A stretch of DNA of 64,000 nucleotides, from the NCBI GenBank assembly GCA_904397895.1, contig CAJFOZ010000083.1:4616-68615 (forward strand), read 5' to 3'. Below are positions 16,101-17,978 of this stretch, piece after piece. This stretch comes from an uncultured Clostridia bacterium (GTDB lineage: Bacteria; Bacillota; Clostridia; Oscillospirales; Acutalibacteraceae). Every line of letters starts with the position of its first letter. The first letter of the stretch is position 1. The notes under the pieces are model-generated. The model did no database searches, had not been told where the DNA came from, and saw only the letters and a program-made list of their open reading frames with translations. The position numbers were made by a program, and so were the translations under genes.

Positions 16101-17978
16101 ATCGCCGTTGACCACCACCCGCTCCGGTTGAAACTGAGTGGCGTTTCCGCTCTCAAACCACAGGACTACCGGCTGGTTTTTGCTGAATTTTTCCGTATCG
16201 GTTCCGTCTTCCGACATCGTCTTTAGGTTGCCAAAGGAAAACCGATAGTCGATGTTAAGCTGGATTTCCTTCATCACAGCCAAACTTCCGCTGTGATCCT
16301 CTTCAGTCTCCAGCTCGTCCGAATCCCGGTTGTACTTTGCAGAAAGGTGGATGGTATAGGCGGTATCCTCCTCCAGATCCAGAAGAAACTCATTTTCACC
16401 GGCAGAGGTTTCCTTTATGTCAACCCTGGTAAATTCTCCGTCTACGCTCTTGAGAACCTCTATGGCGGAGGACGTCAAAGCGGAGTCCTCGTCTTTTAAA
16501 AGGAAAGAGACCTTCATCTGCGCGGTATCGGTCAATTCCTCCGCGAGAAAATTCTCAATCGAAGGGGTGGATTTTAGCACATCGATGGTTTCCATGTGGT
16601 CGATATCCACTTCTTGACCGGTGCTGAGAGTGGCTTTGGTAAGGTGGAACCTCTGCACGCCTGGCGCGTCGGATGCTGTAAGCTGCACGGTGTAGGCGGA
16701 ACTTCCCTCTGCCTTTTGCACCTCGTACTCTGTGCCGTTGACTGTAACCCCCTGGATTTTGGCGCCGTGGGAAACCTCGGCGGAAAACTGTAGGGGAATT
16801 TCCTCCTGCTTTTCATAATGGTACCGGTCCATGGTGGAAGTGATGTTTACTTGGTAGTCCACCGTCTTTTCAATTTTGCGGATCAACAAAGACAGATCCG
16901 TGACCGTCAGTTTCCCATCGGAATTCATGTCCGCCCCATTGCGTTTGGTTTCGGACAAAGGCTGCAACGCAATCAGATGCTTTTGCAGCAGGGCTACGTC
17001 GGTGTAATCCACCGTGCCGTCGCCGTTTAGGTCGCCCTTTCCAGCAAAGGCGTAGACGCTGCCGGCTGCGAATGTGGTCATAGCGGCGATGAGGATGGCC
17101 CACGTCAGCATCCGTATCCCGCCGGTGCGCCCCTTTTTGGTTCGAACAATCACCAGGATGCCGACCATCAAAAGCGCCGCCACAGCGCATAAGACGAATG
17201 GAATCGTTCCGGAAAAAGCCTCTTGATCCTCTGCTGCGGCCTGACCGTTTTCCAACTGGATTTGGCCTTTTTCCTCCTCGACAGGGGTCAAAGGCGCCTG
17301 ACCTTCTTCCATCTCGGTAAAACCTTCCAACTGAATCTGTCCCTCTTCTGCATCGGAAAGGTGTTCCTGCTGGATTTGGCCTTCCTGTGAATCAACAAAA
17401 TTTTCCAGTTGAATCGGTCCGTTTTCTAGGATATTTTCCGGAGGCGTCTGTTCCACATCAGCATCCGGATCCGATCCGACCGGACGTTGTTGAGAAATCG
17501 CGCTGAGTTTTATCTCTACGTCCATGGGGAAAAGGTCCTCTTTTCCTCCGGAGATAGACAGTCCGCTTACACCCACATATAGATCTTTTGCCGGAAGAGT
17601 TTCCTTTGCTGTCAGATTGATCCGCAGGATAGCTCCGTGATCCGCATCATTGGTCCGTCTGAAGAGAACAAACTGCCCATTCTCCGGATTGTAATAGACG
17701 CTTTCCCAGGGCTCCAGCGGCTCAAAATCCTCCTGTGCCGGCTGCTCGAAAATATCCGGGTCGTACTCCAATATTCCCTTTAGTGCATTGACGCCTGTGT
17801 TTGTATCGTCATTGCCGTCAAGGGAAAAGACAAACTCGATTTCTTGTCCCTTTCTGACGGTGGTGTCGCCGGCCACAAGGACCGGCTGTATGACTTCTAT
17901 CGCTGCGACTGCCGTACTCCCCAATAAGAGTCCGCATGTCACAAGAAATACTGCCAGCAAGGCTCTTATTTTAATCAT
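10146..17978 (-). CDS. Large surface M26-family (ZmpA/B/C, IgA1-protease-like) zinc metalloprotease with cohesin, two hydrophobic segments, dockerin and four stalk repeats
   Basis: Signal peptide; cohesin-like TVRKGQEIEFVFSL..GVNALKGILEYDPDIFE; dockerin GDLNGDGTVDYTDVALL..ADMNSDGKLTVTDLSLL; GLUG-like VGGIVG/VGGIAG; M26 motifs AYANMAKLMPF, HETAH (11649-11663) and downstream EAHADG. Confidence 0.85.
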   Translation of the reverse strand: MIKIRALLAVFLVTCGLLLGSTAVAAIEVIQPVLVAGDTTVRKGQEIEFVFSLDGNDDTNTGVNALKGILEYDPDIFEQPAQEDFEPLEPWESVYYNPENGQFVLFRRTNDADHGAILRINLTAKETLPAKDLYVGVSGLSISGGKEDLFPMDVEIKLSAISQQRPVGSDPDADVEQTPPENILENGPIQLENFVDSQEGQIQQEHLSDAEEGQIQLEGFTEMEEGQAPLTPVEEEKGQIQLENGQAAAEDQEAFSGTIPFVLCAVAALLMVGILVIVRTKKGRTGGIRMLTWAILIAAMTTFAAGSVYAFAGKGDLNGDGTVDYTDVALLQKHLIALQPLSETKRNGADMNSDGKLTVTDLSLLIRKIEKTVDYQVNITSTMDRYHYEKQEEIPLQFSAEVSHGAKIQGVTVNGTEYEVQKAEGSSAYTVQLTASDAPGVQRFHLTKATLSTGQEVDIDHMETIDVLKSTPSIENFLAEELTDTAQMKVSFLLKDEDSALTSSAIEVLKSVDGEFTRVDIKETSAGENEFLLDLEEDTAYTIHLSAKYNRDSDELETEEDHSGSLAVMKEIQLNIDYRFSFGNLKTMSEDGTDTEKFSKNQPVVLWFESGNATQFQPERVVVNGDTYPVEPSGDGYSVVLDGFSQTGETEIRVEQVVLENGKAFSLEKDNVIAVMILKESPAITELSIREDAQNGQFHIAFRLTDADHALSNRTIVIQNAEGKTVGQHSFGPDDLQEDVFSGTVGLTDTGLTTSYTVQIVADWDVSTDGSEAEPQKILAEQTVDAQPRALVTAGQAGGPYVKKGGDLQLFYEISHNVKAELSKLVVNNTELPAERLTDGAWKAISTASEQAGEQTFALTQLVFADGTILNVDHQISVEVMKSAPVVRDYATEDILEKDQVRFQFFLADEDQSFLSGRVQLVSDGGSSVVAEDTIAQVGQQEFTLDVEEQKEYTFRVLLSWKETQDGSRQVTDDAVLEETVYMIRDYGLQVSEIKTSSQDGTDTVYFEPNSTVNISFRAQTLTSLAAVRVQMNGTLYDLSSPAENAYEFTAGTGSKPGVQSLTIEKIVLENGKELPVDSANLIQIEVLKAVPEVENLTSEKTAQDQLKVQFALKDADGALHGAWVHIAEEGGKLLLTQPVLVGENEVSVDLTAQERYVVRVTADFDRDTNTLDDTSNFYQDQEIYIDWVTASRDAIQFKDVTDTKLFYRSEGGNTQEIGVLDITGGLPSDVEHYYAVIQMKNMPDFYAGIQQFRQDADSGRVYAVIDQEDAILYDENGVRQNEYAFPLAFRDAQGEHPLVKSAEELFQQMAANPSGSYRLTEDLDASGISADAPAIPGTFTGELDGNGYKILNLKTSLFQTLSGANIHDLVIEDAHITTSRSGILAHVIQNQSVIERVFVVNSSISNGVDELGAFAGNLNNSTIRESASVEVSVKGLVAVGGIVGKTNNGAVIENCYVTGKVQGTYDHPTLGARVGGIAGWHGGGVIRYSFTQVQVVAPAKKGNGGIIGGPNTGSPVIENSLSMSSGAGYRIAGFDVLENAKNVYEYSGSESATNITESNGHQIKETDAIFDKGFYRDTLGLNEDIWDLDLLAYGKRPNLKAAPSVDNNYQIPDYAQLLNSKDYRPDREQAYANMAKLMPFSDTRTWVEYGNRLADTDALAVQAIRFVLPLDGNNALVTGVHRDTLQEIQKIRIVWERGGMQEYAVSPQKTMGNVIATYQIDGMDAPYQFHNYVSGLEEGVVEDVVNRVSDYDYATEIAALTDEEESRLYTDYYNETVKPDLRGFVTKLLFSQEEYPTYCENNAVQELVRERINLEETWKKLLYGYNYYDKWYRIDYSGVTLSDLLFFNGELVARDMTASALSEKLLASTSDQRMTHRTVTFYNNVLKNYTGEPLMDFLGGLSDGMAGYANPSDWFADNFDGILKEQEAYGRSHEIRYRIWDILSGLDDGRKSIVLSILTAPQEDMYLISLPSQLMLGSMNRYPTYLEKDGNERQRMQDIIDVYAEKMGIFYGVSSTWMGDSVDQLNSFVNIQYDTRLNFPESDAAEAGNQDKDKTRDPVMKWVYEANNTISAGGGSAAFANGTNVFWVLTPALGTSDYVFFTFSHETAHNQDGRYFYGGAGRRNGTGAEAHADGNIAQEMRDGCMVFNISKINDIGLEMTNNFSYERIDSAEKVKSYYSQMFETGYVLDYLAAQAFLDLTVEQQAAVALQATHTPGGNSSFTTTYSDLSVEQLKQMDLKNVEDLWENRISIRDLKKGSSEKVNTATDGSYGFESFYNMNWYQSHNDTGSPDTHSFKRLGMEMLGFGGYEDGYRIYMSALSQNDLDALRQITRDPNITWKQYKQNRFQTVEANLDRIPYFDAKTVIEQFKAAFERDAQNGTRSESIAVKRMLYGIVKRATGDFSDGGIYQSPTAISITSAEQLIRLAHENPYGYYRLDADLDFSGIDVTQGSYLPHRFIGILDGNGRKITGMQYPLFGDLQYAQVKNLTIADSSYAPGAQAMLAVKAKQVVVGAITVDSTTVEDANRQLPLVKTKADVYYEYGNTVLTAIDVDLPFEDEAPVDEEKIPADEAEDIFSGTETSNNPAELTPIDNVEPSVLTKTESKYSGEL
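17240..17422 (-). repeat. Degenerate ~39-bp (13-aa) tandem repeats in the cohesin-anchor linker
   Basis: GPIQLENFVDSQE / GQIQQEHLSDAEE / GQIQLEGFTEMEE / GQAPLTPVEEEK / GQIQLENGQ. Confidence 0.75.

Follow-up and report, generated by a model that had tools for sequence, protein, structure and literature searches.

A cohesin and a dockerin flank a predicted internal signal peptide in a single M26 protease gene of gut Bacillota

A 64,000-nucleotide stretch of contig CAJFOZ010000083.1 (positions 4,616 to 68,615, forward strand; assembly GCA_904397895.1) from an uncultured Clostridia bacterium of the Acutalibacteraceae, hereafter the window, carries an open reading frame (ORF) of 2610 amino acids (aa; 10146-17978, minus strand) in which a cohesin and a dockerin are separated by two hydrophobic segments and followed by a protease of peptidase family M26. 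An earlier note on this DNA, which concerned the first 370 codons of the frame, had proposed that the polyprotein is cut at an internal signal into a membrane-tethered cohesin and a secreted dockerin-protease that re-docks on it. We found strong comparative support for this proposal in a conserved cut motif, natural two-gene forms, the lack of an internal translation start and a coupled decay of the two modules, while the note's contrast with streptococcal Zmp proteases did not hold for the family and its idea of exchangeable display found no support. We put the probability that the chain is cut after its second transmembrane helix (TM2), and that the freed dockerin-protease re-docks on its own anchored cohesin, at about 0.65. 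The layout is a conserved and apparently undescribed variant assembled from known parts.

All elements listed in the earlier note were present and in the order given there, namely, a signal peptide, a cohesin, an acidic linker, a first transmembrane helix (TM1), a basic loop, TM2, a dockerin, and the protease; the protease, however, does not follow the dockerin directly, as about 800 aa of repeats (aa 376-1172) lie between them (Table 1). The description of the N-terminal domain as cohesin-like was borne out by structure prediction. Pfam PF00963 scored it below the cut-off in this copy (15.6 against 24.1 bits, E 0.019), and homologous N-terminal domains exceeded that cut-off in 12 of the 18 proteins scanned. 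An AlphaFold model of the domain (predicted local distance difference test, 90) comprised nine strands, and its best fold match was the Clostridium perfringens X82 cohesin 2vo8 (Z 16.1, root-mean-square deviation 2.2 over 130 residues), with 2w1n at Z 15.2. The top 18 rows of a wide fold search were all cohesin-containing entries, the first non-cohesin row appearing at Z 10.5, and a search using a two-domain model returned alignments to the cohesin domain only. The modeled domain thus appears to have a true cohesin fold, a nine-stranded beta-sandwich. The linker behind it (aa 166-257) contains 26% aspartate plus glutamate, with G[PQ]IQ[LQ]E repeats at aa 187, 200, 213, and 238. The dockerin matched Pfam Dockerin_1 over aa 314-369 (E 1e-13, 51.5 bits). 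Type I dockerins bind calcium through loop positions 1, 3, 5, 9, and 12, and the ligands read here are D316-N318-D320-D324-D327 and D350-N352-D354-T358-D361. No C-terminal hydrophobic anchor was seen in a hydrophobicity scan of the 2610-aa protein.

The catalytic half matched Pfam M26_N and M26_C above their cut-offs (E 2e-36 and 7e-28; 125.9 and 97.7 bits), and its M26 region matched the Gemella haemolysans structure 7uvk at E 8e-48. HETAH (aa 2106-2110) and E2130 aligned with HEMTH and the downstream Glu of the Streptococcus pneumoniae IgA1 protease, and the HExxH-plus-Glu pattern was present in 108 of 117 catalytic domains. The zinc-site residues H1847 and E1871 of the G. haemolysans enzyme, given in the accessible text of PMC9637739, have the same 24-residue spacing. 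By these matches the enzyme belongs to family M26 and is a predicted zinc protease. NCBIfam models of ZmpA-D scored it at 120-178 bits, below the subfamily cut-off of 3000. Chickens, whose gut metagenomes contain DNA near-identical to that of this gene, are not known to have human-type IgA1. The protease would most likely target host or dietary gut proteins.

A search with aa 20-420 returned 68 other proteins with the N-terminal region, 67 of which also have the dockerin and both M26 domains. In frame, the layout was found in 105 fused sequences, or 74 after dereplication at 80% identity, and it recurs across gut Bacillota. We also scanned genomes with protease motifs, ordered the 333 confirmed stretches by similarity to the whole query, and kept the best 80. 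These gave 67 loci, spread over Lachnospiraceae, Oscillospiraceae, unclassified small-genome Clostridia, Bacilli/Tenericutes, Erysipelotrichaceae, and Romboutsia; Ruminococcus turbiniformis (L016) is a carrier available in culture. Nine lack a complete 5′ end and were excluded; the remaining 58 comprised 36 fused genes, 1 fused gene with a frameshift, 11 two-gene loci, 7 fused genes with a decayed dockerin, 1 gene with a cohesin-like domain but no dockerin, and 2 with neither module. Every one of the 48 complete loci with a canonical dockerin, which span Lachnospiraceae, Oscillospiraceae, and Bacilli, encodes a cohesin of the same family either in the same ORF or in the gene just upstream. The gene is nonetheless patchy, being present in 3 of 250 genomes of the host's family and in neither of 2 genomes of its genus. 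In unbiased samples, M26_C was found outside the host genome (G000) in 2 of 400 genomes of the phylum and 3 of 399 of the class, too few to support a count; the four genes read were one fused, one two-gene, and two with neither module. Other cargo domains on the same architecture, for which the earlier note had suggested looking, did not turn up in a shallow survey: 8 "longer" and 21 "near" matches of the module profile were all members of the present family or fragments of them, and the only genomes with the whole module in a 400-genome sample of the class were G000 and G1035, where it is joined to M26. On a FastTree protease tree (87 sequences, 771 columns, with a very long outgroup branch), the two-gene forms sit at three points among the fused forms, and the tree does not give the direction of fusion or fission.

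The two-gene loci provide the strongest evidence for the role of TM2. Their protease begins with an ordinary signal peptide that ends in IYA 4-6 residues ahead of the same dockerin and occupies the position of TM2 in the fused form, and the upstream gene encodes a secreted adaptor of 313-333 aa with a cohesin of the same family, a spacer, and a different dockerin. Genomes with the two-gene form also carry stand-alone genes for a signal peptide, a cohesin, LP[QK]TG, a transmembrane helix, a basic tail, and a stop. In layout, such a cohesin-anchor gene matches the first half of the fused protein, and the fused gene is equivalent to an anchoring scaffoldin gene with one cohesin joined in frame to a gene for a dockerin-bearing enzyme; one genome, G1035, carries both the fused and the two-gene form. 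In this copy, an RTKKGR n-region, a 21-residue h-region and VYA fit the substrate pattern of signal peptidase I. Furthermore, the basic loop has a net charge of at least +2 in 73 of the 74 relatives, and TM2 is less hydrophobic than TM1 in 55. A loose AxA-type site lies within 10 residues of the dockerin in 70 of them and after TM1 in 26, and a strict signal-peptidase motif precedes the dockerin in 60 and follows TM1 in none. We strongly infer that TM2 acts as an internal signal peptide, for which the basic loop, besides being the tail of the anchor, could be the n-region.

Whether the cohesin and the dockerin pair was addressed by several lines of comparison. The host genome (2.1 Mb, 86% complete), searched for cohesins with family-specific profiles, yielded no dockerin or cohesin beyond the single one of each in this ORF. 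The multi-cohesin scaffoldin and several dockerin enzymes by which a cellulosome, amylosome, or mucinolysome is recognized were not found in this 86% complete genome. The earlier note's notion of an exchangeable display is without support because the genome yields only this dockerin. A single consensus describes the protease dockerins in fused and two-gene forms alike, and it is distinct from that of the adaptor dockerin. Moreover, the modules appear to decay together. In the group with decayed dockerins, the strict cut motif was missing in 8 of 8 members, and TM2 looks like a plain anchor. Most dockerin loops in this group are pushed apart by inserts (spacing of 35-76, compared with 34 in 67 of the 74), and the cohesin has mostly lost G62, N64, K67, W91, E92, and D148 while keeping its core residues, the match at these six positions being 0-0.29 as opposed to 0.83-1.0 in two-gene adaptors. 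Such coupled decay is expected of a clip that has no use unless the chain is cut. All six residues map to strands 3, 5, and 8 or their immediate neighborhood, the dockerin-binding face of cohesins. A single-chain model from cohesin to dockerin (predicted template modeling score of 0.66, with the cohesin making up 39% of the length) gave a confident dockerin and, from its scores, offers a weak hint of pairing.

As the earlier note had stated, this protein has no LPXTG, and neither PxTG nor TG[DE] was found in aa 1-400. The contrast with streptococcal Zmps that it drew from this absence was, however, wrong for the family: xPxTG stands just ahead of TM1 in 15 of the 74 relatives, and xPxTG or [TAS]GD in 41, many of which would therefore be sortase-anchored. 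The nearest relative, P0002, has VATGD, and TIGR01167 (LPXTG_anchor) matched weakly in 5 of 36 members. From motif to predicted cut, the median distance is 59 aa (n = 44, range 50-86), and 56 aa is quoted for IgA1 proteases in the accessible text of PMC9637739. In the host we counted three sortases, along with 10 candidate C-terminal sorting signals that are mostly PxTGE. A frame of the same genome that lies outside the window (G000:C86:758-3064, minus strand, 769 aa) combines a part that by eye resembles the competence-damage protein CinA at its N-terminus with a sortase domain, through either a fusion or a lost stop. This copy, which like 33 of the 74 has no motif and seems to have lost it, would rely on TM1.

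These observations can be assembled into a mechanism. Sec export via the first signal peptide would place the cohesin outside, where TM1 would halt transfer while the basic loop remains inside. The loop and TM2 would then form a second signal that exports the rest of the chain, as the two-gene forms strongly suggest, and the predicted signal peptidase cut after VYA would leave the dockerin at a new N-terminus. Loaded with calcium, the dockerin would bind the cohesin, which the flexible linker may allow to reach out. In relatives with PxTG or TGD, sortase would transfer the cohesin to the wall; in this motif-less copy it would stay on TM1. As a result, a large protease carried on a stalk would be displayed 1:1.

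A number of observations weigh against cleavage followed by re-docking. Both cut motifs are patterns of our own rather than SignalP predictions, the strict one written after the alignment was viewed, and the strict and loose motifs are missing in 14 and 4 of the 74 modules, respectively. The set of cohesin surface residues was picked post hoc, and the decayed group represents one or two basal clades, all from one sample series according to their record names. The relatives are not independent, given that the two-gene genes fall in three places of the tree yet have similar N-termini, and ranking loci by similarity to the whole query favors those with the N-terminal module. The clip seems dispensable in some members, as loci L024 and L027 have neither cohesin nor dockerin and protein P0067 has no cohesin. 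P0071 (4 member sequences) lacks TM1 and the basic loop, with an AGD motif directly abutting TM2, which reflects either a deletion or an assembly artefact. In P0067, a signal peptide, a spacer of about 25 residues, LPKTG, and two helices are followed by the dockerin and M26 with no cohesin, an arrangement that looks like the streptococcal plan plus a dockerin. Lastly, genomes with two-gene forms contain 5-13 dockerins and 3-10 cohesins, so that adjacency need not mean pairing, and the 86% completeness of the host genome leaves room for missing partners. P0067 and the dockerin and cohesin numbers of the two-gene genomes would also suit a chain that is cut as proposed but serves other partners, with the protease released or docked elsewhere and the cohesin capturing other proteins, perhaps those of other cells. 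We consider this unlikely, given the single cohesin and dockerin of the host, the co-occurrence of the pair in all 48 complete canonical-dockerin loci, and a protease-dockerin consensus that is common to fused and two-gene forms and unlike that of the adaptor.

Alternatively, the chain could remain uncut at TM2 as a two-helix membrane protein, in which cohesin-dockerin binding within or between chains stabilizes or clusters the enzyme. In the decayed clade TM2 seems to serve simply as an anchor, which suggests that this topology is viable. Docking in cis would also agree with the single-chain model, and the accessible text of PMC4611034 describes an Amy4 cohesin that binds its own dockerin without cleavage. 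Such a protein nevertheless seems improbable here, as the cut motif is kept in 60 of the 74 at the site of the only export signal of the two-gene forms, the dockerin would begin three residues from the membrane, and the seemingly uncut forms are those whose dockerin is decaying. The anchor half of this copy might also be in decay and its protease simply shed, since a host with three sortases and 10 candidate sorting signals has no motif here and P0002 still has one. With the cohesin, both helices, the cut motif, and the dockerin all intact, we regard this as very unlikely, and the motif-less state of 33 of the 74 relatives in many lineages points to a working anchor based on TM1 only. Hardly any weight can be given to two separate proteins made from an internal translation start or to a fusion that is an accident of annotation or assembly. 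Met290 does stand at the start of TM2 in this copy and two-gene forms exist, but a start codon preceded by a Shine-Dalgarno sequence was found in the junction of none of 41 fused genes, compared with 33 of 41 at their true starts and 9 of 12 in two-gene forms, and initiation at Met290 would leave the signal devoid of basic residues; an internal start is thus largely refuted and was rejected. The in-frame fusion in 105 sequences speaks against an accident, and an assembly artefact was ruled out by the 67 of 68 relatives with the dockerin and both M26 domains together with an independent chicken-gut contig that spans 16991-17224 (TM1 to the start of the dockerin) with 5 substitutions and no gaps.

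Table 1. Features of the M26 protease gene and its upstream flank, in window coordinates
Feature	Position	Strand	Basis
Whole ORF, 2610 aa (P0001): anchor half aa 1-289, dockerin-protease half aa 290-2610	10146..17978	-	
N-terminal signal peptide, aa 1-26	17901..17978	-	cut site predicted by eye; hydrophobicity scan
Cohesin, aa 27-165; modeled fold nearest C. perfringens X82 cohesins	17484..17900	-	model, Foldseek, Pfam scores of homologues
Acidic linker, predicted disordered, aa 166-257; four G[PQ]IQ[LQ]E repeats	17208..17483	-	
TM1 TIPFVLCAVAALLMVGILVIV, aa 258-278; counterpart of the hydrophobic segment in C-terminal sorting signals	17145..17207	-	
Basic loop RTKKGRTGGIR, aa 279-289, predicted cytoplasmic	17112..17144	-	net charge in relatives
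TM2, putative internal signal peptide, aa 290-310, ending SVYA; predicted signal peptidase I cut after VYA (Ala310)	17049..17111	-	motif counts; two-gene forms
Type I-like dockerin, aa 314-371; both calcium-loop motifs complete, at a spacing of 34 residues	16866..17039	-	
Repeat stalk, aa 376-1172, four repeat units	14463..16853	-	own profile R1
M26 N-terminal region with GLUG motif, aa 1173-1600	13179..14462	-	
M26 C-terminal catalytic region, aa 1732-2324	11007..12785	-	
Predicted zinc site, HETAH aa 2106-2110 and Glu2130	11589..11663	-	alignment to S. pneumoniae IgA1 protease
C-terminal partial second M26_N-like repeat and acidic tail	10149..10748	-	
Pair of tRNA-Ser genes with terminator-like hairpins, immediately upstream of the M26 gene	18591-18808	-	

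The gene stands alone, about 600 bp downstream of the two tRNA-Ser genes, and its flanks have a lower GC content (38-44%) than the gene itself (52-58%). Integration at tRNA-Ser was considered and found unsupported, as no tRNA-end repeat flanks the gene and a tRNA lies nearby in only 4 of 60 related loci. A promoter scan returned 3 sites compared with 6.8 expected by chance. Two RNA runs contained short pieces only (253 nt at 17385-17637 and 197 nt at 15882-16078), which have no bearing on expression either way.

Related loci provided further observations. L046 carries two adaptor-plus-protease gene pairs in tandem. At L047:9509-14202, directly downstream of a two-gene M26 locus, a secreted transglutaminase-like/Ig/cohesin/dockerin protein is followed by a cohesin-anchor gene. 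Clostridia of 1.4-1.9 Mb (G251, G252, G253, G813, G866, G1013, and G1035; e.g., loci L072, L079, L085, L099, L104, and L114) encode multiple dockerin proteins as well as LPxTG/TM anchors with a single cohesin, the genes often lying side by side in pairs, and no description of such a non-cellulosomal cohesin-dockerin network in small-genome Clostridia was found in the literature searched. Very long M26 proteins (frames of 4461-5548 aa) with at least 10 stalk repeats and a decayed or missing dockerin occur at L059, L062, L065, and L069. At L092:8538-11141, a secreted protein with M26_C only (HELTH; 375 bits) and a long PGTEE repeat at its end adjoins a sortase-like gene.

If the chain is cut and re-docks as proposed, a single gene would encode all parts of a cohesin-dockerin display system and yield anchor and cargo 1:1 at one site. 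Such a design would make a very large protease portable among gut bacteria without a scaffoldin of their own, in keeping with the patchy distribution of the gene, and the module would be a candidate one-gene surface-display part for Gram-positive hosts. It could also model how an N-terminal sortase motif holds a C-terminal enzyme despite an intervening second signal peptidase site, as in the pneumococcal IgA1 protease. The gene extends the M26 family from oral streptococci to commensal gut Bacillota.

Within the literature searched, which left most subscription journals outside and included the accessible text of PMC7939560 and PMC2225412, we found no description of M26 enzymes with dockerins, nor of a sorting signal plus an internal signal peptide placed between a cohesin and a dockerin. 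Dockerin-bearing proteases as such occur in cellulosomes, according to the accessible part of PMC12484212. The M26 enzymes of streptococci and Gemella (IgA1 protease/ZmpA, ZmpB, ZmpC, and ZmpD) have the same M26 region and HExxH-plus-Glu site. As far as the accessible text of PMC3518915 goes, their N-terminal plan consists of a signal peptide, a sorting motif, and two hydrophobic segments with a second signal peptidase site already proposed, which is also the plan of the motif-bearing relatives found here. As this export plan of M26 enzymes is already known, the new part is therefore the cohesin before the motif and the dockerin after the cut, which that source does not describe for streptococcal Zmps; the layout studied here would be the IgA1-protease/Zmp N-terminal plan plus a cohesin-dockerin clip. 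Unlike streptococcal Zmps, this protein has no match to the G5 domain of metallo-IgA1 proteases (Pfam, E up to 1), and its N-terminal module has none to the NCBIfam ZmpA-D models. It is possible, if rather doubtful, that the streptococcal N-terminal LPXTG and two helices (IgA1 protease, ZmpB-D) are what remains of a fused anchoring-scaffoldin/dockerin-enzyme gene after its other modules were stripped away. In the ancestral form sortase would attach the first product to the wall, with the second product clipping on non-covalently, and P0067 would be an intermediate. The geometry and the cohesin-less P0067 fit such a descent, the tree gives no direction, and no homology between the streptococcal N-terminus and this junction emerged with the NCBIfam ZmpA-D models, convergence being the alternative. 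Were the relic scenario true, the streptococcal N-terminal peptide or another wall protein would still hold the cleaved enzyme non-covalently.

Among cohesin-dockerin systems, the nearest cohesin fold belongs to the X82 complexes of C. perfringens (NagJ/GH84C and NanJ/GH33; 2vo8 and 2w1n), which, as proposed here, are built on non-cellulosomal single cohesins of host-directed enzymes. Those complexes link separately encoded glycoside hydrolases, and the accessible descriptions mention no membrane hairpin or internal signal between the modules. The earlier note's premise that cohesins and dockerins normally reside on separate proteins has to be qualified, as single-chain cases are described in the accessible parts of two sources: one C. 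perfringens GH31 carries both modules (PMC12997984), and in Ruminococcus bromii Amy4 (Sca1) the cohesin binds the protein's own dockerin, with no membrane helices between the two, and the protein is thought to multimerize (PMC4611034). From the same accessible text, the R. bromii anchoring scaffoldins Sca2/ScaE include a counterpart to the first half of the protein studied here, as Sca2 consists of a single cohesin and a C-terminal sortase signal; unlike the fused gene, Sca2 is a separate gene serving many dockerins. The accessible main text of the Limousia mucinolysome work (PMC12997984) has no match to M26, nor do its 11 supplements to M26, Zmp, or IgA1. As described there, the mucinolysome of these gut Clostridia, which include chicken isolates, brings together host-directed enzymes, dockerin-bearing peptidases, and a sortase-anchored scaffoldin, and it is a multi-gene, multi-cohesin assembly, unlike the one-gene system proposed here.

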